From: Pseudomonadota bacterium
Lineage (GTDB): Bacteria; Pseudomonadota; Gammaproteobacteria; GCA-002705445; GCA-002716945
DNA: 64,000 bases
Assembly (NCBI GenBank): GCA_036163455.1
Contig: JAYZKL010000018.1
Span: 3,595-67,594 of the forward strand
Direction: 5' to 3'
Of the stretch, positions 16,817 to 34,679 are shown in pieces. Numbering within the stretch: the stretch's first letter is position 1; every line of letters starts with the position of its first letter. The position numbers and the translations under genes are program-made. The notes below the pieces were generated by a model, which did no database searches, had not been told where the DNA came from, and saw nothing but the letters and a program-made list of their open reading frames with translations.

Positions 16817-17147
16817 CGAGAGTCAGCAATGCAGTTGCTGCAAATTGCAGAGGAAAGTCCGGGCTCCATAGGCAAGAACGCCAGGTAACACCTGGGAAAC
16901 GTGAGTTTACGGAAAGTGCTACAGAAAATAACCGCCAGTATTTGGTAAGGGTGAAAAGGTGAGGTAAGAGCTCACCACGTATATGGTAACTAATACGGTT
17001 AGAGCAAACCCCGTTCGGAGCAAGGCAAATTTATAGCGTATGTCAGCCTAAGACTTGCTATGTGGTATGCTGCTTGAGGTTTTTGGTGACAAAAATCCTA
17101 GATTAATGACTGCACAAGACAGAACCCGGCTTATTTGCTGGCTCTCA
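16817..17147 (+). ncRNA. rnpB: RNase P RNA (bacterial type A, M1 RNA)
   Basis: Universal motifs GGAAAGTCCGGGCTCCATAGG, AGGTAACACCTGGG, ACAGAAAATAACCGCC, GGTAAGGGTGAAAAGGTGAGGTAAGAGCTCACC and ACAGAACCCGGCTTA. The P1 stem is formed by GCGAGAGTCAGCAA (16817-16829) pairing with TTGCTGGCTCTC (17135-17146). Confidence 0.9.
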
Positions 17148-17263
17148 GCCTATATTCTCATATAAAATTCACTATAAACTGATAAGTTATTGTTTATAAA
17201 CATATTAATCAAATATACTAAAAAACCCACTATATATAACCACAAAACTGCTTGTATTGATCC

Positions 17264-17336
17264 TTGCATATGTTAAAAAAAACACATATAGTGTTGATAA
17301 ATGGTGTTTTTTGTTAAATTGTGGAGAATAATGGTA
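17264..17336 (+). promoter_or_regulatory. Putative mraZ (Pmra) promoter plus MraZ-operator-like direct repeats
   Basis: TTGCAT (17264-17269), 17 nt, TATAGT (17287-17292). Then five TGNTG/TGGTN pentamers at 10-bp periodicity (17292, 17302, 17312, 17322, 17332), resembling the E. coli MraZ GTGGG-N5 direct repeats. Confidence 0.4.
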
Positions 17337-17339
17337 GAT

Positions 17340-17792
17340 ATGTTTAGAGGCATACATAATATAAATCTTGACGGTAAAGGTAGATTAGCTATACCAACTA
17401 AGTATAGAGCTGCTATTAATGACCAATCTTCTGGAAACATGATAATTACTGTCGATCCAGGGGAAAAATGCCTTCTACTTTATCCATTGTCTTCTTGGAA
17501 TGATATAGAGAAGCAAATCAACGACTTACCTGCTTTTCAGAAAAATTCACGTAGAGTACAAAGGCTGTTAGTTGGCCATGCCGAGGATATTCAAATGGAT
17601 AAGGCTGGAAGAATATTAATATCTCAACCTTTGAGATCTATAGCAGAACTAAGCAAAAAAATAACAATGATTGGGCAAGGAAAAAAATTTGAGATTTGGG
17701 GAAATAATATTTGGGAAAATAAAATATCAAAATGGAGAACTGAAGAAACTGATGAATCTGAAGAATCTGTTTTGGGAGGCATTAGAATCTAA
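17340..17792 (+). CDS. mraZ: Transcriptional regulator MraZ
   Basis: MFRGIHNINLDGKGRLAIPTKYR matches the MraZ N-terminus. I chose the internal ATG (MFRG) over the track's longest ORF start at 17301. Confidence 0.85.
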   Translation: MFRGIHNINLDGKGRLAIPTKYRAAINDQSSGNMIITVDPGEKCLLLYPLSSWNDIEKQINDLPAFQKNSRRVQRLLVGHAEDIQMDKAGRILISQPLRSIAELSKKITMIGQGKKFEIWGNNIWENKISKWRTEETDESEESVLGGIRI

Positions 17793-17989
17793 TGGATATT
17801 ACGAGATGTTTTAGAACATTAGGTATAAGTGGACATGAAGATTTAAGTGCAATCAAAAAGGCATTTCTCAAAGTTGCTTTAAAATATCACCCCGATAAAA
17901 CAAAAAATGATATCAATTTACTTCAAAGGTTTATAGAAGCACGTAACGCATATGACAGTATTGTCAAATTTAAAAAGGCGATTAAATGA
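17792..17989 (+). CDS. Stand-alone J-domain (DnaJ-like) mini-protein, 65 aa
   Basis: Canonical J-domain helices and the HPD motif (LKVALKYHPDKTKND...FIEARNAYDSI). The start overlaps the mraZ stop (TAATG) and the stop overlaps the rsmH start (ATGA). Confidence 0.6.
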   Translation: MDITRCFRTLGISGHEDLSAIKKAFLKVALKYHPDKTKNDINLLQRFIEARNAYDSIVKFKKAIK

Positions 17990-18933
17990 ATGATTTAGCT
18001 AAACATATACCAGTTATGCAAAATGAGGCACTAAATGCTCTAAACATACAAGAAGCTGGCATTTATGTTGATGCTACTTTTGGTTTTGGTGGACACTCAC
18101 AAGCCATATTAAATAAATTAAGTACAAGAGGAAGGCTTTATGCAATAGACAAAGATCCATCAACAATAAAAACCAATCAAACAGAATTTTTAGAAGATAC
18201 AAGGTTTACCCTGAAACATGGATGTTTCTCCTCTCTAGAATCCCTTTCAAAAGAGTGGGGAATCTATGGTTCAGTAAACGGTATATTATTTGACCTTGGT
18301 GTTTCAACTGAACATTTAGAAAACCCTAAAAGAGGATTCAGTTTTTTGAGGAAAGGGCCAATTGATATGCGGTTTGATCAGAGTTCAGGTGATTCTGCTA
18401 GTGATTGGCTTGCTACCGCAAGCGAAAGTACGTTAGCTACAATAATCAAAAAATATGGTGACGAACGTTATGCTAAAAGAATAGCAAAAGGTATTGTTAA
18501 GCAGAGGGTGACAGAAAAAATTAGTACTACTGCAGATTTAGTAAATATAATTAATAAATCTATACCAAAAAATGAAACAAAAAAACATAATGCAACACGT
18601 ACATTCCAAGCGATAAGAATACACATAAATCAAGAACTAGAAGTGCTTAGAAGGGCACTGGAAAAAACATATAATATTTTAGCTCCAAAAGGAAGATTAG
18701 TATTAATAACTTATCACTCGTTAGAAGAACGCTTAATAAAAGATTTTATAACTCATACAGATAAAAGTTTATCGGCGCCAAGAGACCTTCCTTTAAGTGA
18801 AAAGTTCCTGACAAAAATGTATAAAATAATAGCCAAGCCAATTAAACCAACATATGAAGAAATTAAAATTAATAAGAAATCTAGGTCAGCAAAATTAAAT
18901 ATTCTGGAGAAGTATAATGAGAATCATAGTTAA
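17986..18933 (+). CDS. rsmH: 16S rRNA (cytosine1402-N4)-methyltransferase
   Basis: HIPVM, YVDATFGFGGHS, FDLGVSxxQL and AIRIxxNxEL motifs of RsmH/MraW. Confidence 0.9.
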   Translation: MNDLAKHIPVMQNEALNALNIQEAGIYVDATFGFGGHSQAILNKLSTRGRLYAIDKDPSTIKTNQTEFLEDTRFTLKHGCFSSLESLSKEWGIYGSVNGILFDLGVSTEHLENPKRGFSFLRKGPIDMRFDQSSGDSASDWLATASESTLATIIKKYGDERYAKRIAKGIVKQRVTEKISTTADLVNIINKSIPKNETKKHNATRTFQAIRIHINQELEVLRRALEKTYNILAPKGRLVLITYHSLEERLIKDFITHTDKSLSAPRDLPLSEKFLTKMYKIIAKPIKPTYEEIKINKKSRSAKLNILEKYNENHS

Positions 18934-19186
18934 TATAACTATCTTATTTGTTATAGCTTTTTCATCTTTCTTAGTTATATATGTTAAGCATCAAAATAGA
19001 ATTATGAATATACAAATTGAGAGCGTAGAAAAGCAATTATCAATAAAAATTAATCAATATAAAGAATTGCTAAATGTTAAAACCACTCTATTGGAAAAAG
19101 AATTAATGAAAGAAGGTTTCAAAAAGAGTTTGGGTATGGATATACCTTCAAAGAATAGAATTATTTATTTAGATTTAGCTGAGTAG
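18917..19186 (+). CDS. ftsL: Cell division protein FtsL
   Basis: 89-aa bitopic protein with an N-terminal TM helix and a coiled-coil, sitting in the canonical position after rsmH. Confidence 0.7.
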   Translation: MRIIVNITILFVIAFSSFLVIYVKHQNRIMNIQIESVEKQLSIKINQYKELLNVKTTLLEKELMKEGFKKSLGMDIPSKNRIIYLDLAE

Positions 19187-19202
19187 GCTGGAGGTTAGTA
19201 AT

Positions 19203-20351
19203 ATGTTTGAGTTAATTGAAAATTATAGCCAGAATGCAGTGATTAAAGTCATTGGCGTTGGTGGCGGTGGCGGAAATGCTGTTCAATCAATGTTAGAGTC
19301 GAAGATTCATGGTGCTGAATTTATAGTAGCCAATACAGACGCTCAAGCATTGAATGACATAAAAGGAGCCACGACAGTACAATTAGGATCTGAAATTACA
19401 AAGGGACTTGGAGCAGGTGCTGATCCAGAAATAGGCAAACAAGCCGCAGAAGAAGATAGAGACAAAATACAAGATGCTATTCAAGGAGCTGATATGTTAT
19501 TTATTGCTGCTGGGATGGGAGGTGGTACTGGAACAGGTGCTGCGCCTGTTATAGCACAATGCGCACATGACATGGGCATCCTTACCGTTGCAGTAGTGAC
19601 AAAACCATTTGAATGGGAAGGAGTTGAAAGAAGACAACATGCTGATGATGGCATAGCAAAACTAGAGGATTGGGTTGATTCTCTAATTATTCTTCCAAAT
19701 TCTAAACTAGAAGAAGTATTTGGAACTGATGCACCAATTTTTGATGCATTCGGCCAAGCAAATGATGCTCTTCGAGGTGCAGTTAAAGGGATTGCTGAAA
19801 TAATAACCATCAGAGGCTTAATTAATGTTGATTTTGCAGATGTTAAAACTGTAATGTCAGGTAAAGGTAAAGCCATGATGGGCTCAGGTGTAGCAAGAGG
19901 CGAAGGTCGTTCAGAAGAAGCAGTGAAATTGGCTCTTAGTAGTCCATTACTAGAGAATATTGATCTACATGGAGCTAGTGGAGTGCTTGTTAATATAACT
20001 GCAGGTTCAGACTTATCTGTAAGTGAATATAATAGTATTGGAAACACTATTAAAGATATCGCGGCAGATGATGCGACAATCATTACAGGTTGTATTAAAG
20101 AAGAAGACGCAAGTGGTGAACTTAGAGTTACTATCATCGCGACTGGTTTTGATGAAAGTAAAGCATCTGATGAATCTGCTTTAGCTTCAACAACAGAAGA
20201 GAAACAATTAGAAAATCAGGTGATGCCATTAAGACCGGCTCAAGGAACTATGTTTGAAGATAAATCACCACAACTTTCAGATGAAAATTCTGAAAGTAAA
20301 GATGGAGATGATTTAGACATTCCTGCTTTTTTAAGGCAACAAGCTGATTAG
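19203..20351 (+). CDS. ftsZ: Cell division GTPase FtsZ
   Basis: Tubulin signature GGGTGTG, IKVIGVGGGGGNAV, and the conserved C-terminal peptide DIPAFLRQQAD. GGAGG SD upstream. The location between ftsL and ftsI is atypical. Confidence 0.95.
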   Translation: MFELIENYSQNAVIKVIGVGGGGGNAVQSMLESKIHGAEFIVANTDAQALNDIKGATTVQLGSEITKGLGAGADPEIGKQAAEEDRDKIQDAIQGADMLFIAAGMGGGTGTGAAPVIAQCAHDMGILTVAVVTKPFEWEGVERRQHADDGIAKLEDWVDSLIILPNSKLEEVFGTDAPIFDAFGQANDALRGAVKGIAEIITIRGLINVDFADVKTVMSGKGKAMMGSGVARGEGRSEEAVKLALSSPLLENIDLHGASGVLVNITAGSDLSVSEYNSIGNTIKDIAADDATIITGCIKEEDASGELRVTIIATGFDESKASDESALASTTEEKQLENQVMPLRPAQGTMFEDKSPQLSDENSESKDGDDLDIPAFLRQQAD

Positions 20352-20354
20352 AAA

Positions 20355-22094
20355 ATCATAGACAACAGCAGACAAAGCGCATGGCGGCAATATTTCATTT
20401 ACCTTATTGCCGCCGTTTTTTTTGTATTTATAATTACAAGAGTAATATTACTTCAAGTTTTTGATACTGACTGTTTTATTTTAAATAAAGATAAATGTAA
20501 AAATAATCTGAGCTCAGTTGCTGATAAGCGCCAAATTGTTGAAAGAGTAATTGATACAAGTCGTGGAACAATATTTGATAGAAATAAAGAAATTCTAGCA
20601 ATGAGTTTACCAAGAAATACATTATGCATAAACCCATATATGTTACATAAATTATCTAAAAAAGAGATAAATAGATATAAACAATTTCTAGAGTTGATTA
20701 AAACAGATAATAATAAATTTATAAAATTAATCAATAAATATAAACAGAGAAAAGAATTTTATCTTAAAAGAAAAATAAATGATGAGTTAGCTTCAAAAAT
20801 TAGTAAATTAGATTTACCTTTTGTATATTTTATAAAAGAATATCATCGTGTATATCTTGGTGGTGAGGCTTTTTCAAACATAATAGGTTTCACTAATATC
20901 GATGATATTGGTCAAGAGGGAATAGAATTATCAAAAAATGAATTACTCATTTCAAAAAAAGGCTTAAAAAAGATAAAAAAAGATAATTTAGGCAGATCAA
21001 TACAAACTCTTGAAATTGTTAAACAACCAATATCAGGAAAAGATATTTTCTTATCTTTGGATAAAAATATCCAGATAATTGGATATAATATTTTAAAAAA
21101 ATATGTTGAAAGATTCTCTGCAGATAGCGCATCCTTAATTCTTGTCAAAAATCAAACTGGAGAAATTATTTCTATGGTAAATTATCCATCATTTAATCCT
21201 GAATCTCGAAATCAAATGAAGGGTATTAACATAAAAAATAGAGTAGCTACAGAAGTTTTTGAGCCTGGGTCGACAATAAAACCTTTTATAATTCTTTCTG
21301 CTTTAAATACAAATACCATTGGTCTAGATGATTTTGTAGATACTACTCCAGGTATAATCAAAATTGGTGATAAGAAAATTAAGGATCCACGTAATTATGG
21401 GAGACTCACACTATCACAAATTATTGAAAAATCTAGTAATGTAGGAGCTGTTTTAGTATCCAGGAGTTTAAATAAAAAAGATTTATGGAACACTCTAACA
21501 TCTTTGCAGTTTGGACAGAATTTATATACGGGTTTTTCTGGAGAGCAATTTGGTGAACTTAATCATCATTCTCAATGGAAATCAGTCAATCAAGAAACTA
21601 TGGCGTATGGTTATGGAATTTCTACAACTCTTCTTCATTTATCAAGCGCATACTCTATTCTTGCAAATCATGGAAAGTCTATACAACTAACCTATCAGAA
21701 AGTTGAAAATGATGATGAAATCTATCAGGAAGATGTTATTGATCCAATATTATCAAAAGAGATATTAAAAATGATGATGCAAGTAGTTAAGAAAGGAACA
21801 GGTACCAAAGCATCCTTAGATAAGTATACGGTTGCTGGCAAGACAGGAACAGTTCAAATCTTAAAGGAACAAGGCTATACATCAGAAGAGCACAACACAT
21901 TATTTATAGGAGTAGTGCCAGCTACTAATCCACAGTATGTTGCTGCTATAATAGTCAGGAAGCCTGACCCAGGAAAAGGTAAGGCATCTGGTGGAAAAAA
22001 TGCTGCTCCAATTTTTAAAGAATTTATGAGTCAATCACTAAATCTTTTGAAGGTGTACCCAGATAAAAAAATAGTGAAAAATGAAAGAAAATAA
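20355..22094 (+). CDS. ftsI: Peptidoglycan D,D-transpeptidase FtsI (PBP3); start codon uncertain/non-canonical
   Basis: The track ORF starts at ATG 20601. However the conserved FtsI N-terminus (AWRQYFIYLIAAVFFVFIITRVILLQV...SRGTIFDRNKEILAMSLP, aligning to E. coli SWRFALL...GRVAWLQV...SRGMITDRSGRPLAVSVP) is encoded in frame upstream with no ATG/GTG/TTG. The frame is open back to the ftsZ TAG at 20349-20351. Candidate starts are ATC 20355 and ATA 20358. SxxK, SSN and KTGT transpeptidase motifs are present. Confidence 0.8.
   Translation: MIDNSRQSAWRQYFIYLIAAVFFVFIITRVILLQVFDTDCFILNKDKCKNNLSSVADKRQIVERVIDTSRGTIFDRNKEILAMSLPRNTLCINPYMLHKLSKKEINRYKQFLELIKTDNNKFIKLINKYKQRKEFYLKRKINDELASKISKLDLPFVYFIKEYHRVYLGGEAFSNIIGFTNIDDIGQEGIELSKNELLISKKGLKKIKKDNLGRSIQTLEIVKQPISGKDIFLSLDKNIQIIGYNILKKYVERFSADSASLILVKNQTGEIISMVNYPSFNPESRNQMKGINIKNRVATEVFEPGSTIKPFIILSALNTNTIGLDDFVDTTPGIIKIGDKKIKDPRNYGRLTLSQIIEKSSNVGAVLVSRSLNKKDLWNTLTSLQFGQNLYTGFSGEQFGELNHHSQWKSVNQETMAYGYGISTTLLHLSSAYSILANHGKSIQLTYQKVENDDEIYQEDVIDPILSKEILKMMMQVVKKGTGTKASLDKYTVAGKTGTVQILKEQGYTSEEHNTLFIGVVPATNPQYVAAIIVRKPDPGKGKASGGKNAAPIFKEFMSQSLNLLKVYPDKKIVKNERK
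20383..20423 (+). terminator. Intrinsic-terminator-like GC-rich hairpin plus T8, immediately after ftsZ and inside the ftsI 5' coding region
   Basis: GGCGGCAATA (20383-20392), 12-nt loop, TATTGCCGCC (20405-20414), G, TTTTTTTT (20416-20423). It encodes YLIAAVFF of the FtsI TM helix. Confidence 0.5.
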
Positions 22095-23490
22095 TAAAAA
22101 TATTGATCAAATATTAAATTTTGTAAGAAATAATTTATCTGGCAATTTAGATATTGATAAAGCTTTGGCATGGAATAGTAAAGTAATTAAAAAGGGACAG
22201 ATTTTTGTTTCTGTTAAAACTAAATTAGAAAAAAGATATAATTACATTAAAGAAGCATTAAGTAGAGGGGCAAAAGCTATCATTTCTGATGTGCAACTTA
22301 AAAATAATTCTGAATTAAAAAATATACCAGTTTTATATTGTAAGTATTTAAAGGATAATCATAATAAATTTCTTAATCATATATATAAGAATCCATTAAG
22401 CAATATTAAAGTAATCGGAGTAACTGGAACTGATGGAAAGACATCGCAATTACATTTACTTGCACAAAGCTTATCTCTTAGTGGAAAAAAAATAGGTGTT
22501 ATATCAAGTGAAGGCAATGGTATTTATCCAAGATTAAAGAAATCAAATTATACAACACCAAGTTTTGATATTTTATTTAAGTATTTTAAAAAATTTAGCA
22601 TATCTAAAGTTAATATAGTATTAATAGAATGTTCATCTCAAGGAATACAGCAAGGGAGGGTAGATGATATTAAATTTGACTTAAGCATCTTAACTAATAT
22701 TAACAAAGACCATATTGATTATCATGGATCATTTAAGAATTATATAGCATCAAAAATGAAATTATTAAATATGACTAAAAGACATATCTTTATTAATAAA
22801 GATTGCATTACAACTAAGAAAAATATGAAATTAATCACCACAAAAGCTCATAAACACTTCTTTAATTATGACCTCAACTTAAAAGAAAAATTTACAACTA
22901 TCAAATTATTAGGTACTGTTTCCGATTATTACAATATTTGTGTTATCCAAAAAATTCTTTTGCTTCAAAAGATATCAGATAAAAGAATCTGTCAAATTAT
23001 TAGTCAACTTAAACCCATTGTCGGTAGAAATCAATTTGTAAGAACAAAAAATAAAGGAACATATGTTATTGATTATGCTCATACACCAAGCTCACTATCT
23101 AATTTGTTGAGAACCACAAACTTCTTTTCTATAGTCAACAATGGTAAGCTAATCACTGTTTTTGGTTGTGGAGGAGATAGAGACGTATGGAAAAGACAAG
23201 CAATGGGAAATGTATCGTCGAAATTCTCTAATCATATAATTTTAACAGATGATAATCCAAGAAATGAGGATTCAATGAAGATAATTAATGATATAAAAAA
23301 AGGAGTAAATCAAAAAATAAGCCTTTCAATTATACCTTCCAGAAAAAAAGCAATTAAAAAGGCTGTTTCAATTGCAAAAAAAAATGATTTTATTGTAATA
23401 GCAGGAAAAGGAAATGAAAACGAGATTAAATATAAGAAAAATATTATTAAACATAATGATTTTAAGGTACTGAAGGCGATTTTAAAATGA
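22081..23490 (+). CDS. murE: UDP-N-acetylmuramoyl-L-alanyl-D-glutamate--2,6-diaminopimelate ligase
   Basis: Mur ligase motifs (GVTGTDGKT, DNPRNED) and dcw position. Confidence 0.85.
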   Translation: MKENNKNIDQILNFVRNNLSGNLDIDKALAWNSKVIKKGQIFVSVKTKLEKRYNYIKEALSRGAKAIISDVQLKNNSELKNIPVLYCKYLKDNHNKFLNHIYKNPLSNIKVIGVTGTDGKTSQLHLLAQSLSLSGKKIGVISSEGNGIYPRLKKSNYTTPSFDILFKYFKKFSISKVNIVLIECSSQGIQQGRVDDIKFDLSILTNINKDHIDYHGSFKNYIASKMKLLNMTKRHIFINKDCITTKKNMKLITTKAHKHFFNYDLNLKEKFTTIKLLGTVSDYYNICVIQKILLLQKISDKRICQIISQLKPIVGRNQFVRTKNKGTYVIDYAHTPSSLSNLLRTTNFFSIVNNGKLITVFGCGGDRDVWKRQAMGNVSSKFSNHIILTDDNPRNEDSMKIINDIKKGVNQKISLSIIPSRKKAIKKAVSIAKKNDFIVIAGKGNENEIKYKKNIIKHNDFKVLKAILK

Positions 23491-24821
23491 ATGGAAACTT
23501 ATCACAATTAGAAGTAATTTTAAATGCAACAACAGACAGCCCAAATATTAAATTTGATGGAATTTCAATTGATTCAAGAAAAATAAAAAAAGGAAATATT
23601 TTTATTGCGATTAAGGGAGAAAATTTTAATGGCCATGACTTTATTAATGACGCTGTAACCAACGGATCTTCAGCAATTATTACTGAAAAACCATGTGATA
23701 ATATTCCACACCTATTAGTCAAAGATACAACTATAGCTTTGGGTAAAATTGCAAATTATCATATCAACAACATAAAACCTTTAACAATAGGAATAACAGG
23801 AACTAATGGAAAAACAACCACAACAAACTTGATAGGTTCGATGCTTACAAAATTTAAAAGCACTTTAATTAGTTTTGGAAATTATAATAATCAGATTGGG
23901 CTCCCATTATCAATATTAAAAATGAATAATAATCATAAAATGTGTGTACTAGAAATGGGTGCAAGCAGAAAAGGTGATATTGATTATTTGACATCTATTT
24001 CTTTGCCTAAAATTGTTGCACTTTTAAACGTATCATCTGCACATTTAGAAAGTTTTAAAGATATTGAGAATATTCGTCTAACTAAAGAAGAAATTTTCTA
24101 TGATCAAGGATATAAAAAGATTGTAATCCTAAATAAAGATGATGAAAATTATTCACGATGGGCTGAATTAGTTAAAATGCATCAAATTAGAACTATCTCT
24201 AAAAATCAAATTGCAGACTATTATATTGAAAATAAAAACAATAATTTGCTAAACATAAGAATTCCAAAAGATCAGTCATTTCAGCTAAAAATAAATGACC
24301 ATCATCAGCAACATATTGACAATATCCTTTTTGCAATTGCTTGCTCCTATGAAGCAGGAGCTTCCATAGAAAATATTATTGCTGGTTATCATGATTTTAA
24401 TGGAGTTCAGGGTAGGTTTTATATTAATAAAGGTATCAATGGATCAAAGATTATCGATGATTCATATAATGCGAATCCCTCTTCCATGAAATTATCTTTA
24501 ACATCATTAGTTTCAATGGAAGGAATTCCATGGTTTGTCATGGGAGATATGGGTGAGCTAGGGTCGGAATCTAAAAAATTTCATAAAGAAGTAGTGCAGT
24601 ATGCAAAGAAAATTGGAGTCAGAAAACTTTTTTATATGGGTGCTTATAAGGACATAGTTATAAAAAATTTTGGAGATAATTCTTTTTACTTTGCTGATAA
24701 GTCGGAACTTATTAAATATATACAAAATATTATCACTGAAGATGTTAATATTTTAGTTAAAGCCTCTAGATTTATGGAATTTGAGACTATTGTTAGTGAA
24801 TTAACACTCAGAAAAGCTTAA
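23487..24821 (+). CDS. murF: UDP-N-acetylmuramoyl-tripeptide--D-alanyl-D-alanine ligase
   Basis: GITGTNGKTTT P-loop, Mur ligase family, dcw position. Confidence 0.85.
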   Translation: MNGNLSQLEVILNATTDSPNIKFDGISIDSRKIKKGNIFIAIKGENFNGHDFINDAVTNGSSAIITEKPCDNIPHLLVKDTTIALGKIANYHINNIKPLTIGITGTNGKTTTTNLIGSMLTKFKSTLISFGNYNNQIGLPLSILKMNNNHKMCVLEMGASRKGDIDYLTSISLPKIVALLNVSSAHLESFKDIENIRLTKEEIFYDQGYKKIVILNKDDENYSRWAELVKMHQIRTISKNQIADYYIENKNNNLLNIRIPKDQSFQLKINDHHQQHIDNILFAIACSYEAGASIENIIAGYHDFNGVQGRFYINKGINGSKIIDDSYNANPSSMKLSLTSLVSMEGIPWFVMGDMGELGSESKKFHKEVVQYAKKIGVRKLFYMGAYKDIVIKNFGDNSFYFADKSELIKYIQNIITEDVNILVKASRFMEFETIVSELTLRKA

Positions 24822-24833
24822 ACTTACTTAACT

Positions 24834-25934
24834 ATGTTAATTTATTTTTTTGATTATCTCTCTCAGTATTACTCGGGCTTCAATGTTTTCCAATATCTTA
24901 CTTTAAGAATAATTCTTGCTGCCCTTACAGCCTTATTTACTTCTTTGATATTAAGCCCCTATATAATTAAAAAGCTTTTAGAAAATCAAATGTATCAAAC
25001 AATCAGAACTGATGGACCTGAATCACATATTGAGACTAAATCTAAAACACCATCTATGGGAGGAGTAATAATTCTTATTTCGATAGTGATTAGTACTTTA
25101 TTGTGGGCAGATATTTATAATAAAAATATATGGATCCTTTTATCTATTTTAATAAGCTTTGGCATTATTGGATTCTATGATGACTATAAGAAATTTGTTT
25201 ATTCGGACAGTAAAGGCTTAAGTGGCAAAACAAAATTATTCTTTCAGATTATTTTTGCCACTATAGTTCTGGTATTTATGTATGCGAACATACAAGACAA
25301 TTTAGAATTAACTTTAATTTTGCCATTCATAAAAACATTTTCTCTATATTTGGGCTGGATATTTATACCATGGAGTATTTTTATTATTGTAGGTTCTAGC
25401 AATGCTGTTAACCTCACTGATGGTCTTGATGGTTTAGCAATTTTACCTTGCATTTTAATTGCATCAGCATTTGTAGTATTTGCATATGTAGAAGGAAATG
25501 CAAATATAGCAAATTATTTACTTATACCATATTTGCCTCATGTTTCAGAGATTGCAATTTTTTCAAGTGCAATTGTTGGTTCAGGTTTGGGTTTTTTATG
25601 GTATAACTCTTACCCCGCAGATATATTTATGGGAGACGTAGGTTCTTTATCACTTGGTGCAGCACTCGGCACGATAGCTGTCTTGCTTAGGCAAGAAATT
25701 GCATTTGCTATAATGAGCGGAGTTTTTGTCGCGGAGGTTCTTTCGGTTATTATTCAAGTGGCTTATTTTAAGTTAACTGGAAAAAGAGTTTTCTTAATGT
25801 CACCATTACACCACCATTTTGAGTATAAGTGGGCAAAGATTTATAAAAACCCAGAGCCAAAAATTATTGTACGGTTTTGGATTGTGACCTTCATTCTTGT
25901 GCTTATTGCATTGTCATCTCTTAAAATTAGGTAA
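24834..25934 (+). CDS. mraY: Phospho-N-acetylmuramoyl-pentapeptide transferase
   Basis: Polytopic membrane protein with NLTDGLDGLA and MGDVGS motifs. Confidence 0.9.
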   Translation: MLIYFFDYLSQYYSGFNVFQYLTLRIILAALTALFTSLILSPYIIKKLLENQMYQTIRTDGPESHIETKSKTPSMGGVIILISIVISTLLWADIYNKNIWILLSILISFGIIGFYDDYKKFVYSDSKGLSGKTKLFFQIIFATIVLVFMYANIQDNLELTLILPFIKTFSLYLGWIFIPWSIFIIVGSSNAVNLTDGLDGLAILPCILIASAFVVFAYVEGNANIANYLLIPYLPHVSEIAIFSSAIVGSGLGFLWYNSYPADIFMGDVGSLSLGAALGTIAVLLRQEIAFAIMSGVFVAEVLSVIIQVAYFKLTGKRVFLMSPLHHHFEYKWAKIYKNPEPKIIVRFWIVTFILVLIALSSLKIR

Positions 25935-25938
25935 AATA

Positions 25939-27249
25939 GTGGCTAAGAAAAAATTAGTGTTAGGAATGGGTAAGACTGGCATCTCTTGTATAAATTTTTT
26001 AAATAAAAAAGATATAGGTTTTAAGGTATTTGATACGAGAGAAAAACAATTTATAGATATTTCTAACTGTGACGGCCAAAACTTTTTGAACTATAGGTTT
26101 TGTGATTTTGAAGATGATTTTTTGGAAGATATAGATGAGGCTATTATAAGCCCTGGATTAAATTTAGAACATAAAATAATAAATAGGATTAGGGCACTTT
26201 CAATTCCTATCATAACTGACATAGAGTTATGGAGTAGATATTCAGACACTCCTATCATAGCTGTTACAGGTACGAATGGTAAAACCACTACAGTTAGCAT
26301 GTTAGAGCACCTATTAAATAATCTGAAAATTGATTCATTGGCATGTGGAAATAATGGTATCCCAATTTTAGAGTCATTGAATAAGCAATATGAGTATTTG
26401 ATTGTAGAACTATCTAGTTATCAATTAGAAAATATCAACAATATTAAAACATTGGCAAGTTTAATAACTAATGTCGAAGAAGATCATTTAGAGAGACACA
26501 AAGAGTATCAAAATTATTTATCAATAAAAAAAAGAATATTTATGGATTGCGAGTATGCACTCTGCAATATAAATCTAAAAAATAGTATGGGCGATATACA
26601 AAATTGTAAATTTTTTGGCATTGAGAAAAATAAAAATAACTTTATTATTAATAATAGATATAATACAAAACTACTTCTCAGAGATGAAAATGTAATTTAT
26701 GGTGATTTAAAAATCCCTTTTAAAGGACTTCATAATATTAATAACTTACTTGCTGTTCTATCTGTAGCAGATTATTTAGGTATCAAAATTGATAAGTCTC
26801 TCCAAATTTTATCAACTTTTATTTATCCAGATCATAGAATCCAATTCATAAAAAAGAATAGAGATATACTTTGGTATAATGATTCAAAATCAACAAATGT
26901 TTCTTCTACTATTGCGGCATTAGAATATACCAAAAAAAATACTTTATTAATTTTAGGTGGATCAGAAAAATCTTTAGATTATCAAAAATTAAATCCATAT
27001 ATTAAAGAAAAAGTTAAAATGTTAATTTTTATAGGAGAGAATCGTAATTTAATAAAAAATCATTTAAAAACAAATATACCAATGATAGATGCAAGATCTA
27101 TTTCAGATGCTGTAGCAATAGCTGATAGAAATGCATTATCAGGTGATACAGTTTTGTTGTCACCAGCTAGCCCTAGTTTTGATATGTTTGTTAACTATGA
27201 AGAACGTGGTATAGAATTTATAAAAGCGGTTAATAATATTGTTAAGTGA
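25939..27249 (+). CDS. murD: UDP-N-acetylmuramoylalanine--D-glutamate ligase
   Basis: LVLGMGKTG N-terminal Rossmann motif and GTNGKTTT. I propose a GTG start at 25939, 4 nt after the mraY stop, rather than the track ATG at 25897 inside mraY. Confidence 0.8.
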   Translation: MAKKKLVLGMGKTGISCINFLNKKDIGFKVFDTREKQFIDISNCDGQNFLNYRFCDFEDDFLEDIDEAIISPGLNLEHKIINRIRALSIPIITDIELWSRYSDTPIIAVTGTNGKTTTVSMLEHLLNNLKIDSLACGNNGIPILESLNKQYEYLIVELSSYQLENINNIKTLASLITNVEEDHLERHKEYQNYLSIKKRIFMDCEYALCNINLKNSMGDIQNCKFFGIEKNKNNFIINNRYNTKLLLRDENVIYGDLKIPFKGLHNINNLLAVLSVADYLGIKIDKSLQILSTFIYPDHRIQFIKKNRDILWYNDSKSTNVSSTIAALEYTKKNTLLILGGSEKSLDYQKLNPYIKEKVKMLIFIGENRNLIKNHLKTNIPMIDARSISDAVAIADRNALSGDTVLLSPASPSFDMFVNYEERGIEFIKAVNNIVK

Positions 27250-28393
27250 AAATATAAAGAAAGCATTACTAATTAGTGAAAGCAGAGGTATAGATAATAT
27301 TTTTGTGATCTGTATTAGTATATTATCACTTATTGGTCTAATCATGGTTGCATCATCAACTTTAGATTATTCTATGCAAACATATAAAAATGCATTCCAT
27401 CTTACTATTAGGCATTCTATATACCTTGCATTAGGGTTATCTGTAACTTTTTTATTAGCAAGAGTAAAATTAAGTTTTTATGATGACTATAGCAAAATAA
27501 TCCTCTTATTTGCTTTTATTATTTCACTTCTTGTTTTTATACCAGGTTTAGGAAAGACAATTAAAGGTGCTACGCGTTGGATAGATCTAGGTATATTTAC
27601 TGTACAAGCTGCTGAGGTATCAAGATTATTTATACTTATTTGGGTATCAAGTTATATAGTTAGAAAAGATACTGAGAAATCATTTAACAAACCATTAATT
27701 TTTGTAATTATATTATCAACCATAATTTTGTTACAAAATGACTTTGGAAGCGCAGTTGTGCTGGTTTCAAGTTTCCTTGCTCTATCATTTATTTCTGGGA
27801 TTGATTTGAAAAAATTTATGATTTGGTTATCTGTATTTTTATTTTCAGCCTTATCAATCGCATTTCTGACCCCATACAGATTAAAAAGGTTACTTAGTTT
27901 TATGAATCCATGGGAAGATCCTACTGGAGCTGGATTTCAACTTATAGCATCTGAACTGGCATTTAGCAAAGGAGGTTTTTTTGGTCTTGGATTAGGCTCT
28001 AGCGTCCAAAAGCTTTTTTATTTACCTGAATCATATAATGATTTTATTTTTGCAATAATTGCTGAAGAATTAGGACTATTTTTTATATTTTTTGTTATTA
28101 TTATTTTTGTTTTACTTTTATTTCGGATATTTATTTTGGCAAAGCAATCTGCAAATAATGAAATGATGTTTGCGTCTTATTTGTCCTATTCAATAGGATT
28201 TCTAATTCTAATCCAAACACTAATACACATGTCAGTCAATGTAGGAATTATGCCAACAAAAGGGATGGGGCTACCCTTTATAAGTTTTGGAGGAACAAAT
28301 ATATTAGTGATGTTTATTTGTGTTGGTATTTTAATTAGAATACAAATTGAGAATAGAAAAAAAATAAGTCAAGCTGTACAAAGGAGCTATTAA
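27239..28393 (+). CDS. ftsW: Peptidoglycan glycosyltransferase FtsW (SEDS family)
   Basis: Ten-TM SEDS protein with GATRWIDLG and DFIFA motifs. dcw position. Confidence 0.85.
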   Translation: MLSENIKKALLISESRGIDNIFVICISILSLIGLIMVASSTLDYSMQTYKNAFHLTIRHSIYLALGLSVTFLLARVKLSFYDDYSKIILLFAFIISLLVFIPGLGKTIKGATRWIDLGIFTVQAAEVSRLFILIWVSSYIVRKDTEKSFNKPLIFVIILSTIILLQNDFGSAVVLVSSFLALSFISGIDLKKFMIWLSVFLFSALSIAFLTPYRLKRLLSFMNPWEDPTGAGFQLIASELAFSKGGFFGLGLGSSVQKLFYLPESYNDFIFAIIAEELGLFFIFFVIIIFVLLLFRIFILAKQSANNEMMFASYLSYSIGFLILIQTLIHMSVNVGIMPTKGMGLPFISFGGTNILVMFICVGILIRIQIENRKKISQAVQRSY

Positions 28394-29475
28394 TGACTGA
28401 AAAATTTATTTCAATACTTGCCAGTGGAACAGGCGGCCATGTCTATCCAGCATATACTATAGCGAATGAATTAATTAATAAAGGATATAAAATTATTTGG
28501 ATAGGAACAAAAAGTGGTATAGAAAATGCAGTAATTAAAAATGAAGCAATAAAAATTAAGCATATCGATTCAGCTGGAATAAGAGGTAAATCCTTCATTA
28601 AGAAAGTTTCTGGTTTTTTTCTTTTAATCAAATCTATATTTCAAGCATACTATATTTTGAAACAATATAAGCCAGTTTTGGTTATAGGGTTTGGTGGATA
28701 TGTCAGCGTCTCAGGATCATTTATTTCTTATCTTTTAAAGATTCCCTTAATCATTCATGAACAAAACTCGATTGCAGGCACTGCAAATAAAATTAATTAT
28801 TTTTTTTCTAAAATAGTATTTGAAACTTTCCCCAATAGCTTTAGTAAGGTAGAGAAAAAGATTATACATACAGGGAACCCTGTTAGAGATATATTTACAA
28901 ATCTAGAAAAGCCTGAAGACAAATATATTTCTCATAACCCATATTTAAATATTCTTACAATTGGGGGAAGTCAAGGGTCATCCTTTTTTAATGAATGTTT
29001 GCCATTTGCGTTTTCATATTTTAATAACCAGAATATTTCTATTAAACATTTATCTGGAAAAGGTAACAAAGATTTGCTAGAGGAGAGATATAAAAAATAT
29101 AAAATTGAAGCAGAAGTTATAGAATATTCTGATGATATGGATACATTATATAATTGGGCAAGTTTAATTATCTGCAGAGCTGGATCTACGACAATTTCAG
29201 AAATTTCAAAAGTAGGAAGAGCTGTAATCCTTGTGCCATTTCCTCATGCAACCGACAACCATCAATTCTATAATGCAAATTATTTAGCTAATCAGTCAGC
29301 ATGTATACTTTTAGAACAAACTGAGACGTTTGTAGAAGATTTTGTAAATACAATAAATATTCTGCTTAATAATCAGAAGAGAATGTATACGTTATCCAAG
29401 AATATACAAGAAGTTTTCCCAAAAAAATCCTTAGAAACAATTCTCAATACATCAATAAAGACCATCAATGAATAA
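28393..29475 (+). CDS. murG: UDP-N-acetylglucosamine--N-acetylmuramyl-(pentapeptide) pyrophosphoryl-undecaprenol N-acetylglucosamine transferase
   Basis: GT28 family, N-terminal GGTGGHVYPA motif. Overlaps the ftsW stop. Confidence 0.85.
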   Translation: MTEKFISILASGTGGHVYPAYTIANELINKGYKIIWIGTKSGIENAVIKNEAIKIKHIDSAGIRGKSFIKKVSGFFLLIKSIFQAYYILKQYKPVLVIGFGGYVSVSGSFISYLLKIPLIIHEQNSIAGTANKINYFFSKIVFETFPNSFSKVEKKIIHTGNPVRDIFTNLEKPEDKYISHNPYLNILTIGGSQGSSFFNECLPFAFSYFNNQNISIKHLSGKGNKDLLEERYKKYKIEAEVIEYSDDMDTLYNWASLIICRAGSTTISEISKVGRAVILVPFPHATDNHQFYNANYLANQSACILLEQTETFVEDFVNTINILLNNQKRMYTLSKNIQEVFPKKSLETILNTSIKTINE

Positions 29476-30847
29476 TTCCTTTGATCAAATCAAAAATTTA
29501 AAAAAGATACATTTCATAGGTATTGGTGGCTCAGGGATGTACGGAATTGCAGAAGTGTTGCTTAATTTAGGTTGTTCTGTATCAGGGTCTGATTTGGTGC
29601 AAAGCACTATAACAAGGAGATTAAGATCTTTAGGAGTTAAAATTTTTACTAAACATTCTGTATCAAATCTTAAGAATGTAGATTTGATTGTTTATTCAAC
29701 TGCTATTAAAAAAAATAATCCTGAATTAAGATTTGCTGAAAAAAATAAAATCACCATTATACCAAGAGCAAAAATGCTAGCTGAACTGATGAGATTCAAG
29801 TATGGAATTACTGTTGCTGGCTCTCATGGGAAAAGTACAACTACTAGTTTAATTAGTTGGATTTTAGCTGAAAGTAAACTTGACCCTACATATATTGTAG
29901 GAGGGAAACTAAAAAGCAGCAATAATCATGGTAGATTAGGTCATGGAAAATATCTGATTGCTGAAGCAGACGAAAGTGATTCAAGCTTCCTATATTTATC
30001 ACCAGAGCTTGGGGTTGTAACAAATATTGATAATGAACATCTTGATAATTATGATAATGATTTCAAGAACCTTCAGACAGCATATTTAACCTACATTAAC
30101 AATATACCTTTTTATGGACGAGTATTCTTGAATGGTGATGATAAAAATATTAGAACTATAATAAATAAAATTAATCGATCAATAGTAACCTTTGGGTTTA
30201 AATATGAAAATGATTTTTATGCAAAAAATATTGTTTATAACAAAGATGGGATGAGTTTTTCAATTTTTAATAATAAATCAACATATAAAATAAAAACTAA
30301 ACTTTTTGGTAAGCATAATATTTTAAATATACTTGCCTCTTTTTCAATTTCACTATTCTTAAAGATCCCATCAAAAAAAATTATACAAGCAATTAAGAGT
30401 TTTGAAGGAATTTCAAGAAGGTTTGATATATATAATAATTTTAAATCAAAATTTGGTGAATATACCTTAATAAATGATTATGGACATCACCCTACTGAAA
30501 TTAAATATACCGTTGAAACAATAAGGGAAGTCTGGAAAGATAAAAAGATTTTTATGATTTTTCAGCCTCATAGATATACCAGAACAAAAAACTGCCTTAC
30601 TCAATTTATAGAAGTTCTCTCAAAGGTTGATAAAGTAATATTGACAGAGACCTATTCAGGTGGAGAAAGAAAGACAAAATTTTCATCATATTTTTTATAT
30701 AATAAATTAAAAGAACATAATATAGATTGCCAATATGTTAAAGACATTGATAAAATCCCTGATAAACTTAAAAATTTATTTGAAAATGATAATATAGTAT
30801 TGGTCCAGGGAGCTGGAAATATATCCCAAGTAATAAAATTATTATAA
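29468..30847 (+). CDS. murC: UDP-N-acetylmuramate--L-alanine ligase
   Basis: HFIGIGGSGM and GSHGKSTTT motifs. Confidence 0.85.
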   Translation: MNNSFDQIKNLKKIHFIGIGGSGMYGIAEVLLNLGCSVSGSDLVQSTITRRLRSLGVKIFTKHSVSNLKNVDLIVYSTAIKKNNPELRFAEKNKITIIPRAKMLAELMRFKYGITVAGSHGKSTTTSLISWILAESKLDPTYIVGGKLKSSNNHGRLGHGKYLIAEADESDSSFLYLSPELGVVTNIDNEHLDNYDNDFKNLQTAYLTYINNIPFYGRVFLNGDDKNIRTIINKINRSIVTFGFKYENDFYAKNIVYNKDGMSFSIFNNKSTYKIKTKLFGKHNILNILASFSISLFLKIPSKKIIQAIKSFEGISRRFDIYNNFKSKFGEYTLINDYGHHPTEIKYTVETIREVWKDKKIFMIFQPHRYTRTKNCLTQFIEVLSKVDKVILTETYSGGERKTKFSSYFLYNKLKEHNIDCQYVKDIDKIPDKLKNLFENDNIVLVQGAGNISQVIKLL

Positions 30848-30848
30848 T

Positions 30849-31712
30849 ATGGAAACTCTTCATAGAGATAAATTATCAAAACATACTACTATTCGTTTAG
30901 GTGGGATAGCAAATAAAATTTGTTTTCCTAAAAATATAGAACAATTTCAAGAATTGTTACTTTCATTACCATCCAAAAGATTTATTATAATTGGAAATGG
31001 ATCTAACATTGCATTTAGAGATGGCGGCTATGATGGAATAGTGATAAGTTTAAAAAAATTTAATAGAGATTTAATATTACTTGATGAGAAAAAAATTGTT
31101 GTTGGAGCTGGAGTATCTTGCTCAAAATTCTCAAAATTTCTTCATAAAAATAAAATTTCTGGATTTGAATTTCTTCATGGTATACCTGGTACAATTGGAG
31201 GATCGATGGCAATGAATGCAGGAGCTTTTAAAAATTCAATTTGGGATAAAATCTCAAAATATAAAATCATCAATAGTGATGGCAATATTAAAACTTTCTC
31301 AAGAAGACAAATCTCTACTTTTTATAGAAAAGTTAATATAAATAGGAAATCATACTTTGTAGAAGCAGAATTCCTAATTGATCGAACTATTAAATTTCAA
31401 AAAAAATTAATTTTAGAATATGCTCTTAAAAGAAAAATATCTCAACCAGTCAATCAATTTTCTTCTGGCTGTATATTTAAAAACCCTAATTCCAAACATT
31501 CTGCAAGCTATTTAATTGAGAAATCTGGGCTTAAATCTGCAAGAATTGGAGGAATTTATGTATCAAAAAAACATTCTAATTATTTTATTAATGATGGAAG
31601 AGGAACTTGTAATGATTTAGAGAAATTAATTACATTTGTAAAAAATAGGATTAAAAAAGAACATAATGTGAGTCTTGACTGTGAAATTCATATATTTGGG
31701 AATAAGAAATAA
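30849..31712 (+). CDS. murB: UDP-N-acetylenolpyruvoylglucosamine reductase
   Basis: FAD-binding PCMH-type domain (GNGSNIAF) and C-terminal MurB domain. Confidence 0.8.
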   Translation: METLHRDKLSKHTTIRLGGIANKICFPKNIEQFQELLLSLPSKRFIIIGNGSNIAFRDGGYDGIVISLKKFNRDLILLDEKKIVVGAGVSCSKFSKFLHKNKISGFEFLHGIPGTIGGSMAMNAGAFKNSIWDKISKYKIINSDGNIKTFSRRQISTFYRKVNINRKSYFVEAEFLIDRTIKFQKKLILEYALKRKISQPVNQFSSGCIFKNPNSKHSASYLIEKSGLKSARIGGIYVSKKHSNYFINDGRGTCNDLEKLITFVKNRIKKEHNVSLDCEIHIFGNKK

Positions 31713-31718
31713 CTAGAC

Positions 31719-32633
31719 ATGACTAATCATAAAGAAAAATGCATTGGAATTATATGTGGAGGATGGTCTAAAGAACGAGAGATTTCTCTTTCTAGTGGCA
31801 CTACAACTTATAATTGTCTTAAAGATAATGGGTATAATGCATTTTTTTTAGATATCAAAGAGAATGACAAAAATATATTAATCAATTTTATTAAAAAAAA
31901 TTCAATTGAATTAATTTTTAATCTTGTCCATGGCACAGGTGGTGAAGATGGATTAATCCAATCATATTTGGATGAAATAGGAATAAAATATATTGGTTCA
32001 GATTCCGTATCATCAAAGGAATCATTTGATAAAATAGCGACTAAAAATATTTGGCGCACTAATCAATTGCAAACCCCTGATTACAAGGTTTTGGAAGATG
32101 GCTTGAACTATGAAGATATTGTTGAAAAGTTTGGTAATAATTTTTTAATTAAACCAATAAAATCTGGATCTAGTGTTGATATTGAAATTATAAAATCACA
32201 ACTACAATTTAATAATTATATAGAAGATAAAAATAATATAGGTGAATATTTTGTAGAAAAATTAGTAAGTGGAGATGAATATACTGCGCCAATAATATGG
32301 GAAGAGGTTTTTCCTATAATAAAAATTGAAACCAAAAGAGAGTTTTATGATTATCAAGCAAAATATTTTGATGAAAATACAATCTTTACATTCCCCAGTT
32401 TTAATAAAGAGGATTTAGAAAATATCCATGCTACTGTCAAAAAAGCATTTTCTATAATTGGCTGCACTGGATGGGGTAGAGTTGATTTTTTTATAGATAA
32501 TAATAAAGAAATTGAACTTATAGAAATAAACTCTATACCTGGGATGACAGATCATAGTTTAGTTCCAATGTCAGCAGAAAAAAACAATCTTACTTTAATT
32601 GAACTTTTAGAAAAAATTTTATTTAATTTATGA
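31719..32633 (+). CDS. ddl: D-alanine--D-alanine ligase
   Basis: ATP-grasp Ddl motifs (IGIICGGWSKEREISL, HGTGGEDG, EINSIPGMT). Confidence 0.85.
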   Translation: MTNHKEKCIGIICGGWSKEREISLSSGTTTYNCLKDNGYNAFFLDIKENDKNILINFIKKNSIELIFNLVHGTGGEDGLIQSYLDEIGIKYIGSDSVSSKESFDKIATKNIWRTNQLQTPDYKVLEDGLNYEDIVEKFGNNFLIKPIKSGSSVDIEIIKSQLQFNNYIEDKNNIGEYFVEKLVSGDEYTAPIIWEEVFPIIKIETKREFYDYQAKYFDENTIFTFPSFNKEDLENIHATVKKAFSIIGCTGWGRVDFFIDNNKEIELIEINSIPGMTDHSLVPMSAEKNNLTLIELLEKILFNL

Positions 32634-33295
32634 AAGTTATTTCAAAATATCTAATTCTGGTTCTAATTGTAGTTAGTGTATATATGTTTTTTAATTATAC
32701 TCAGGTGATTGGATCATATCCAATCAAAACCATTAGCTTTAAAGGCGATTTTATTTATGCTAATGAAAATAAAATACGAAAACAATTACGGTCACTTATT
32801 GGACAAGATTTAATAAAAATTGATATTTTGAAGATTAAAGACAATGTAAAAGAAAATGATTGGGTAAGTAATGTAATTGTTGAACGCAGATTACCTGATA
32901 CATTATTTATTGAAATATTTGAATATCGGCCTATTATTATTTGGAATAAAAACTATTATATAGATGATAAAGGTAAAAAATTTAGAGTAAAACAGAATAT
33001 TGTATTAGATTTACCTAAAATCAGAAGTAATATTTTAAATTATAAGACTATGTATAATCTCTATATAAACTTATCAGAAATGCTGAATGAAATTGATTTA
33101 AAAATAATTTCAATATCTCATGAAAATGATATGCTCGATATTCATACAGATAGGTATAATTTTCTAGTTAGATATTCGCTGTATTCTCAAAAAATAGATG
33201 AATTTATCCATGTTTTTGAGCAATTTCAAAATAAAAACAAGAAAAATATTCAGACCATTGATCTCAGATATCCAACTGGTTTTGCTGTTCATTAA
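32630..33295 (+). CDS. ftsQ: Cell division protein FtsQ
   Basis: Bitopic protein with an N-terminal TM helix followed by a POTRA-like region. dcw position between ddl and ftsA. Confidence 0.7.
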   Translation: MKVISKYLILVLIVVSVYMFFNYTQVIGSYPIKTISFKGDFIYANENKIRKQLRSLIGQDLIKIDILKIKDNVKENDWVSNVIVERRLPDTLFIEIFEYRPIIIWNKNYYIDDKGKKFRVKQNIVLDLPKIRSNILNYKTMYNLYINLSEMLNEIDLKIISISHENDMLDIHTDRYNFLVRYSLYSQKIDEFIHVFEQFQNKNKKNIQTIDLRYPTGFAVH

Positions 33296-33321
33296 ATAAG
33301 TTATAATGATAAAATAAGATA

Positions 33322-34575: not shown

Positions 34576-34679
34576 TACATTAATTTTGTCATAAATATAG
34601 GGGTATTTACTTATAATTTGGCTGTTTTTCCTTAACAAATATATTGAAAAACAATATACTTTATTAACTGCTTATAATT

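Follow-up and report, generated by a model that had tools for sequence, protein, structure and literature searches.

The dcw (division, cell wall) cluster has a gene order that is among the best conserved in bacteria, the canonical proteobacterial form being mraZ-rsmH-ftsL-ftsI-murE...ftsQ-ftsA-ftsZ-lpxC, and how one transcription unit yields division proteins in very unequal amounts is still debated. A stretch of 64,000 nucleotides (nt) from a Pseudomonadota bacterium (assembly GCA_036163455.1, contig JAYZKL010000018.1, positions 3,595 to 67,594 of the forward strand; hereafter the window) raises this question in an acute form. There, ftsZ lies between ftsL and ftsI, and ftsI has no canonical start codon. 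Quantitative proteomics of Escherichia coli indicates that FtsZ is needed tens-fold above FtsI. How, then, is FtsI started at this locus, and how could its level be held so far below that of FtsZ? The answer proposed here, given a probability of about one half, is that an attenuator within ftsI and weak, coupled non-AUG initiation would together set FtsI far below FtsZ.

The window has a GC content of about 29%, and its dcw cluster lies within an unbroken run of + strand open reading frames (ORFs) from 17301 to 35606; the dcw genes and junction elements described below are all on this strand. By NCBIfam matches, mraZ, rsmH, ftsL, ftsI, murE, ftsQ, ftsA and ftsZ are co-oriented, with lpxC downstream; as far as its genes were identified, content and orientation agree with those of the canonical cluster. 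The ftsZ gene (19203-20351; TIGR00065, 410 bits) is complete, and its 382-amino-acid product carries the GGGTGTG motif and the conserved C-terminal peptide DIPAFLRQQAD. It is not the last division gene, and lies about 13 kb further upstream than in the canonical order. Directly 5' of it is ftsL (18917-19186; TIGR02209 ftsL_broad, E=6.8e-10), the same neighbour as in all loci of the clade described below. It is followed by ftsI, which encodes penicillin-binding protein 3 (PBP3; proposed full-length coding sequence 20355-22094, 579 amino acids), and by murE (22081-23490). At the other end of the cluster, ftsQ (32630-33295) and ftsA (33322-34575) are followed directly by lpxC (34680-35606). The canonical ftsZ slot is here an empty spacer of 104 nt (34576-34679). 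Both the insertion of ftsZ between ftsL and ftsI and the direct succession of ftsA and lpxC had been claimed in a preliminary description made from the letters of the window, and NCBIfam identities and coordinates agree with it. A strong Shine-Dalgarno (SD) sequence, GGAGG, is located at 19190-19194, 8 nt 5' of the ftsZ ATG; SD-like motifs at -16 to -7 were found in only 10 of the 63 ORFs of the window, that of ftsZ being the strongest. The organism appears to use mostly SD-independent initiation on A/T-rich leaders.

Relatives were collected by an FtsZ search of species-representative genomes and metagenome contigs, to which seven exact-protein look-ups of more distant FtsZ clusters were added. 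The resulting sample comprises 29 loci with a readable junction (FtsZ identity to the window 63-100%) and 21 distinct junction sequences; one close relative, L084, was left out, its contig ending before the end of ftsZ. The order ftsL-ftsZ-ftsI was found in all 29 loci, and thus in all 21 distinct junctions, with murE next wherever the contig reaches. The canonical ftsQ-ftsA-ftsZ-lpxC order was found in most of the checked FtsZ relatives at or below 56% identity (about 52-56%), which are labelled Rariloculaceae, Granulosicoccaceae, Lysobacterales and others. In L091, at 62% FtsZ identity, ftsA lies directly 5' of ftsZ, and the contig ends inside ftsZ. From ocean samples, the FtsZ search also gave a very large number of separate clusters with 64-73% identity, some of them on contigs as long as 946 kb. 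This clade of uncultured, low-GC marine gammaproteobacteria is diverse and occurs in many samples. The labels of its records are confined to Gammaproteobacteria, Pseudomonadota and 'uncultured Ectothiorhodospiraceae', and no SAR86 or Thioglobus label was present among the matches listed. A different marine gammaproteobacterial lineage (L018, 5528-10071; L092, 1118-5232; L093, 30-1968), whose FtsZ is 46-48% identical to that of the window, has ftsZ between mraZ and rsmH, seemingly the result of a second, independent relocation to the front end of the cluster.

Could this arrangement be an artefact, with a sequencing error having removed the start codon, or could ftsI be a decaying gene? The preliminary description had raised an indel at the junction and an artefactual copy of ftsZ as possible refutations. 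An independent Tara metagenome contig, L081 (CEOQ01281018.1), carries a junction identical to that of the window. In addition, two pairs of loci, L001/L082 and L002/L083, each agree across the ftsZ stop codon and the codons preceding the tryptophan (W) codon of the W-R-Q-Y segment of ftsI, with one base difference per pair, further into ftsI; the project of L083 (accession prefix AACY) differs from that of L002. Because of the identity of L081 and the agreement within the pairs, sequencing error, misassembly and an artefactual second copy of ftsZ are excluded. Nothing beyond the absent start codon speaks for an artefact or a pseudogene, and intact catalytic motifs, dN/dS values (nonsynonymous to synonymous substitution ratios) of 0.1-0.2 and conservation throughout the clade also stand against it; its probability is practically negligible.

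The amino terminus of FtsI is encoded upstream of the annotated start. The annotated ftsI ATG, at 20601, shares one frame with ftsZ, and the 83 codons from 20352 to 20600, after the ftsZ TAG (20349-20351), contain no stop and no ATG, GTG or TTG, as the preliminary description had noted and as both the ORF definition and a check of the junction bear out. Their translation begins KIIDNSRQSAWRQYFIYLIAAVFFVFIITRVILLQVFDTDCF; they encode KIIDNSRQSAWRQYF, followed by a transmembrane (TM) helix and then by LLQVFDTDCF...RGTIFDRN. NCBIfam FtsI/PBP2 profiles cover residues 9-572 of the proposed protein. In the match to the E. coli-type profile PRK15105, where these residues span profile positions 21-568, W10-R11 fall on W22-R23. 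The catalytic motifs SxxK (STIK), SxN (SSN) and KTG are intact, and close FtsI homologues match Pfam PF03717 and PF00905. Pairwise comparison of six lineages over the 73 codons that run from W to codon 83 gave dN/dS values of 0.09-0.22 and a proportion of synonymous differences (pS) of up to about 0.7. These low values mean that the N-terminus upstream of the annotated ATG is translated, and the earlier statement that the 83 open codons encode the true N-terminus of FtsI is upheld. Initiation at 20601 would yield FtsI without its TM helix, and from the topology of class B PBPs such a TM-less PBP3 could not reach the periplasm. Another route considered, initiation at an out-of-frame ATG at 20381 followed by slippage on a downstream run of eight T, was rejected: this ATG is a by-product of xxA-TGG codons, and purifying selection acts on the peptide that frame 0 encodes there.

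The frame of ftsI relative to ftsZ differs among lineages. Six junctions (window, L001, L082, L002, L083 and L161) have ftsI in frame 0. In 13 junctions (L003, L004, L014, L086, L087, L164, L166, L167, L169, L170, L171, L172 and L174) ftsI is in the +1 frame and overlaps the end of ftsZ, and in two (L085 and L163) it is in the +2 frame. The ftsZ stop codon is TAG in 12 of the 21 junctions and TAA in nine. Two long-read, pilon-polished loci, L174 and L175 (5832-7149), have murE split into two ORFs at different points, likely through residual indel errors; frame data from such assemblies need care, and the ftsZ-ftsI junction of both loci matches that of the related L003 and L087.

These frame data bear on the suggestion that FtsI is made as an FtsZ-FtsI fusion by readthrough of the ftsZ stop codon, one of three start routes offered in the preliminary description. 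In the window the two genes are indeed in frame and separated by a single UAG, and a fusion is topologically permissible, the FtsI N-terminus being cytoplasmic. This in-frame arrangement behind one TAG was correctly described for the window, but it is not a conserved trait, ftsI being in another frame in 15 of 21 junctions and UAA being the stop in nine. Three frame groups and common UAA stops would need three recoding mechanisms, and the fusion is therefore rejected as extremely unlikely. Furthermore, no X-XXY-YYZ slippery site was seen by sequence inspection before the stop codon for the +1 or -1 shifts that other lineages would need, and TAG is an ordinary stop in this organism, which uses the standard code. 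The 63 ORFs of the window end in TAA (35), TGA (17) and TAG (11), by which a reassignment of TAG was also ruled out.

A canonical ftsI start is missing as a rule in the clade. An ATG upstream of the TM helix exists in only four of the 21 junctions: four codons before W in L161 (MQSAWRQY), and directly before W in L086, L171 and L172 (MWRQY). A survey of FtsI gene calls in the 120 best cluster representatives (P0121-P0240) gave a similar picture, as 14 (about 12%) were called with the TM helix, with N-termini MQSAW..., MW..., MNKYRW... or MSNKYRW..., or with a TTG start. P0176 (MRRSFFY...), in which an ATG replaces the W codon, is also called with the helix and was overlooked by this motif-based count. 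In all other calls the start is Met84 or a codon that lies within the TM helix or beyond it. ATG codons thus arose at several positions in the clade. For about 88% of these 120 best clusters the TM helix is missing from the automated FtsI call, so that most PBP3 models of these organisms in public protein databases lack the helix, and the gene models need correction.

Where would ftsI start in the lineages without an ATG? Between the ftsZ stop and the TM helix, the only near-cognate candidates in the window are AUC at 20355-20357 and AUA at 20358-20360, exactly where the preliminary description had located them. The AUC is the favoured candidate, and would give the 579-residue protein, with the AUA as alternative. 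Among the frame-0 junctions, AUY is present at +4 in five of six, the exception being L161 with its own ATG; the window has AUC at +4 and AUA at +7, and L001 and L002 have AUU and AUA at these positions. Both +2-frame junctions have AUU at +3. All 13 +1-frame junctions have CUG (inside GCU-GAY) and/or AUU (inside GAU-UAR) at the ftsZ stop. When the span from the upstream in-frame stop to the W codon was searched, the near-cognate nearest to the ftsZ stop was at most 8 nt away from it in each of the 17 junctions that have no ATG upstream of the TM helix; AUA, AUC or CUG also occur further downstream in a few lineages.

Termination-reinitiation works only at overlaps or very short distances, the stop and start overlapping or being spaced within about 10-20 nt (PMC10666635). 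The spacing of at most 8 nt fits this need, and in the window the AUC begins 4 nt after the TAG. AUA, AUC, AUU and CUG initiate at about 0.1-3% of the level of AUG in E. coli (bioRxiv 10.1101/063800). A study of reinitiation at non-canonical codons (PMC4648390) concerns eukaryotic cells and was not used. The most plausible of the three routes that had been suggested is a start at AUC 20355 or AUA 20358 that is coupled to termination of ftsZ.

A further motif lies in the last codons of ftsZ (L-R-Q-Q-A-D), where UAAGG-N7-CUG, an SD-like sequence followed by CUG, spans 20332-20346. In the +1-frame lineages this CUG is likely to be the ftsI start. The main +1 group, with seven distinct sequence types, has exactly 11 codons from the CUG position to the W codon. 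They diverge strongly and are rich in codons for K, N, S and T; stops and frame-breaking indels are absent, even in lineages with an ATG next to W. Of the 21 junctions, 17 use AGG as the Arg codon of the UAAGG motif, where genome usage of AGG is 17%, and 19 have GCU as the Ala codon overlapping the CUG, where usage is 40%. The two exceptions to GCU have another in-frame start, the ATG of L161 and an AUU in L170. This over-representation of the synonymous codons that form the motif is no more than suggestive, the lineages not being independent of one another.

The window has this CUG in another frame than ftsI, as the first codon of a five-codon mini-ORF that ends at TAG 20359-20361. That the motif is kept even here could mean that frame-0 lineages start at the SD-served CUG (20344, +1 frame) and then slip by -1 on the following run of A, AG-AAAA-U at 20350-20356 in the window and UUAAAAAAUU in L002. 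The window, L001 and L002 each have such a run of four to six A exactly at the point between the CUG and the frame of ftsI, and AAA lysine codons are known slippery sites, as in dnaX. On the other hand, two low-efficiency events would be required in series, L161 is in frame 0 with neither the CUG nor such a run, and the +2-frame lineages would require yet another shift. Retention of the motif is also explicable by +1-frame ancestry and the coding constraint on FtsZ, and slippage from the CUG is regarded as highly unlikely.

The second device proposed for the junction is an RNA hairpin within the TM-coding codons of ftsI. Its 12-bp stem is formed by a 5' arm at 20381-20392 (AUGGCGGCAAUA) and a 3' arm at 20405-20416 (UAUUGCCGCCGU) around a 12-nt loop (20393-20404), and a T8 tract, in codons for V-F-F, lies directly 3' of the stem at 20416-20423. 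The hairpin begins 30 nt after the ftsZ stop, has an energy of -18 kcal/mol, and lies in a region with a local minimum free energy z of -3.55. Hairpin and U8 form a canonical intrinsic-terminator signature. A standard terminator scan, limited to loops of 3-8 nt, missed it because of the 12-nt loop; a custom scan of both strands of the window ranked it first of 16 candidates. Rfam at gathering thresholds gave no match at the junction, its only matches elsewhere in the window being RNase P RNA and tRNA, and a REP- or MITE-like repeat was ruled out, the arm sequence being unique to this locus in the window. A sigma-70-like match overlaps the 3' arm and the U-tract (TTGCCG-16-TATAAT, 10/12, 20407-20434, +). 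A transcript from it would be without the TM codons of ftsI; promoter-like matches in this AT-rich region occur at chance level (121 found, 120.5 expected), and the match is probably meaningless.

The hairpin is under selection. The rare codons with which it encodes W-R-Q-Y...L-I-A-A are CGG, with a share of 1.3% among Arg codons, and two consecutive GCC, whose share among Ala codons is 8.7%. A hairpin of -12 to -20 kcal/mol is present at the same place in all 21 junctions, its stem base 19-31 nt after the ftsZ stop. In an alignment of 16 distinct sequences (A1), codon-anchored, ungapped and not fitted to the structure, 80% of cells pair against 69% in shuffles, and both sides have changed in 10 of 15 pairs. 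The covariation score is 0.416 against 0.212 in shuffles, with 0 of 500 shuffles reaching 0.416 and slid controls scoring at most 0.21. The same helix was recovered independently by RNAalifold. Compensation occurs between synonymous Arg codons of the 5' arm (CGG, CGA, AGA and AGG) and amino-acid changes in the TM helix encoded by the 3' arm (AA, VA, VS, AF and VF), which means that the protein sequence of the TM helix co-evolves with the RNA structure. In the outgroup with adjacent ftsL and ftsI (one lineage, loci L018 and L092), ftsI starts with ATG and no comparable hairpin is present, the best 44-nt window having about -6 kcal/mol. None of the relatives with canonical order has a U-tract in the 130 nt after ftsZ, which have a GC content of 50-73%, mostly 60% or more, at which structure there is uninformative. 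Neither the hairpin and U-tract, nor their sharing throughout the clade, nor the repeated gain and loss of start codons was part of the preliminary description.

What the hairpin does can be approached through its U-tract and its position. The tract is U8 in the window and has seven U in eight in L001, L002 and L170. A textbook run of U7-U8 directly 3' of the stem in these four argues against the hairpin being mainly a stability or processing element, by which the ftsZ segment would be shielded from 3' exonucleases after downstream endonucleolytic cleavage and would outlive the ftsI-mur mRNA, with ftsI still started at a near-cognate codon. Protective stem-loops between cistrons, such as the REP (repetitive extragenic palindromic) elements of malE-malF and the stem-loop of the puf operon, are an established route to unequal expression of operon genes, and the hairpin is universal in the clade while the U-tract is poor in several lineages. 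As the principal role of the hairpin, protection appears unlikely, though worth serious consideration; stabilisation and termination are not mutually exclusive.

The position of the hairpin speaks to a mainly translational role, in which transcription would pass freely and the hairpin would limit or position ftsI initiation, for example by burying the W-adjacent AUG or by halting post-termination ribosomes. The ATG of L086, L171 and L172 abuts the W codon and has its G in the stem base, and the spacing from the ftsZ stop to the hairpin is constantly short. Most lineages, however, have their candidate starts 26-37 nt upstream of the stem, which by the size of ribosome footprints is too far for occlusion or positioning at a start codon, and the U8 tract of the window would be left unexplained. 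A mainly translational role of the hairpin is considered quite improbable.

Attenuation within ftsI combined with weak coupled initiation remains the preferred reading, and could have come about as follows. In the ancestor of the clade, ftsZ would have moved from the end of the dcw cluster into the ftsL-ftsI slot. A gene needed in thousands of copies would then have been 5' of, and co-transcribed with, a gene of which very few copies are required, a dosage problem that the devices at the junction would solve. The hairpin would have two effects, partial intrinsic termination and protection of the 3' end, such that most transcripts would finish as stable ftsZ mRNA and a minority would extend into ftsI-murE and beyond. 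Translation of ftsI, lacking AUG, GUG and UUG, would start inefficiently at a near-cognate codon a few nucleotides from the ftsZ stop, by ribosomes that have just terminated on ftsZ or by 30S subunits landing on the A-rich, unstructured spacer. In the window this start would be AUC 20355, possibly AUA 20358, and in +1-frame lineages CUG or AUU overlapping the ftsZ stop. The two devices would reinforce each other, the few ribosomes on the first ftsI codons leaving the hairpin free to form. The FtsZ:FtsI ratio, which the preliminary description had tied to translation, would thus probably be set at the RNA level, by termination or stability, as well as by translation.

Several observations weigh against this reading. 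Near-cognate codons are common by chance, Ile making up 10.6% of codons, and their presence is weak evidence of initiation. The UAAGG motif is 18 nt from AUC 20355, too distant to serve as its SD sequence. The U-tract is weak in L004, L086, L164 and L167, with three or four U in eight, and termination may therefore not be the conserved function. T-rich sequence would be expected anyway in TM-coding codons of a genome with 29% GC. Finally, the comparison in which no hairpin was found involves a single outgroup lineage and two loci.

A stronger form of the proposal, tentative and rather unlikely, is that the junction is a translation-gated terminator inside a gene. The polymerase would reach the U-tract about 70 nt past the ftsZ stop. 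In the usual case, no ribosome would have restarted at the non-AUG codon, the hairpin would form, and the transcript would end as ftsZ mRNA; when a ribosome did restart, it would melt the 5' arm and the polymerase would continue into ftsI-mur. If this were true, one rare reinitiation event would set both transcription and translation of the downstream cell-wall operon relative to FtsZ, and selection would favour loss of the canonical ftsI start, explaining a start-less essential gene in most lineages.

The arrangement is a variation on known kinds of regulation and not a new category, although a search of the literature for this gene order or kind of mechanism found no prior description. Among the internal operon attenuators known from E. 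coli are that of rplL-rpoB and, between rpsU and dnaG, the terminator T1. As in these, a partial terminator after a highly expressed gene would lower transcription of low-abundance downstream genes, and as in rpsU-dnaG-rpoD termination would be paired with poor initiation of the downstream gene, there dnaG. In contrast to both, the hairpin and U-tract here lie within the TM codons of the essential ftsI and not in an intergenic spacer, and the downstream gene is without any canonical start codon. Termination-reinitiation coupling (Huber et al., PMC6728339; PMC10666635) likewise has its start a few nt from, or overlapping, the upstream stop, as do the candidate starts here. Known natural coupled pairs use AUG or GUG (ATGA, TGATG), usually at a 1:1 ratio, whereas AUY or CUG and a very unequal ratio are proposed here. 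The infC and pcnB genes of E. coli are initiated at AUU (cited in bioRxiv 10.1101/063800), and as in these a start codon of the AUU class would here keep low, or under regulation, the level of a gene that is essential or regulatory. IF3 senses the AUU of infC, which is strictly conserved, whereas in this clade the start changes its position and its frame relative to ftsZ from lineage to lineage, and an ATG has been regained in some of them, at no fewer than four different positions. Three features distinguish the locus from all systems compared: it follows a rearrangement of the highly conserved dcw order, its terminator-like element is dual-coded with a TM helix, and its start codon is absent, not merely weak.

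The clade is thus a natural experiment in which the gene of the most abundant divisome protein has been put directly 5' of one of the least abundant. The compensation proposed would consist of an RNA structure written in TM-helix codons and the loss of the canonical start from an essential gene. It offers a compact and testable case of dual coding, with the same bases serving protein and regulatory RNA, and displays start-codon turnover in a clade widespread in ocean metagenomes.

The remainder of the region is as follows. By NCBIfam matches, mraZ (17301-17792, +) and rsmH (17986-18933, +) open the dcw cluster and secA (35950-38589) lies beyond lpxC. In the murE-ftsQ interval, one ORF (23487-24821) was called murF by its position. 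Between mraZ and rsmH, and overlapping each by a few bases, is a 65-amino-acid ORF (17792-17989, +) that encodes little beyond a DnaJ J-domain (PF00226, E=2.6e-11). Every clade locus that was examined has it in this position, called as a fusion with rsmH in L174, and this mini-protein is no member of the canonical dcw cluster, another respect in which the locus differs from it. Directly upstream of mraZ lies the RNase P RNA (RF00010, 293.6 bits, 16819-17149, +). It takes up most of the 529 nt that separate a methyltransferase gene from the dcw cluster, so that the dcw promoter region must lie in the remaining approximately 150 nt or overlap rnpB.

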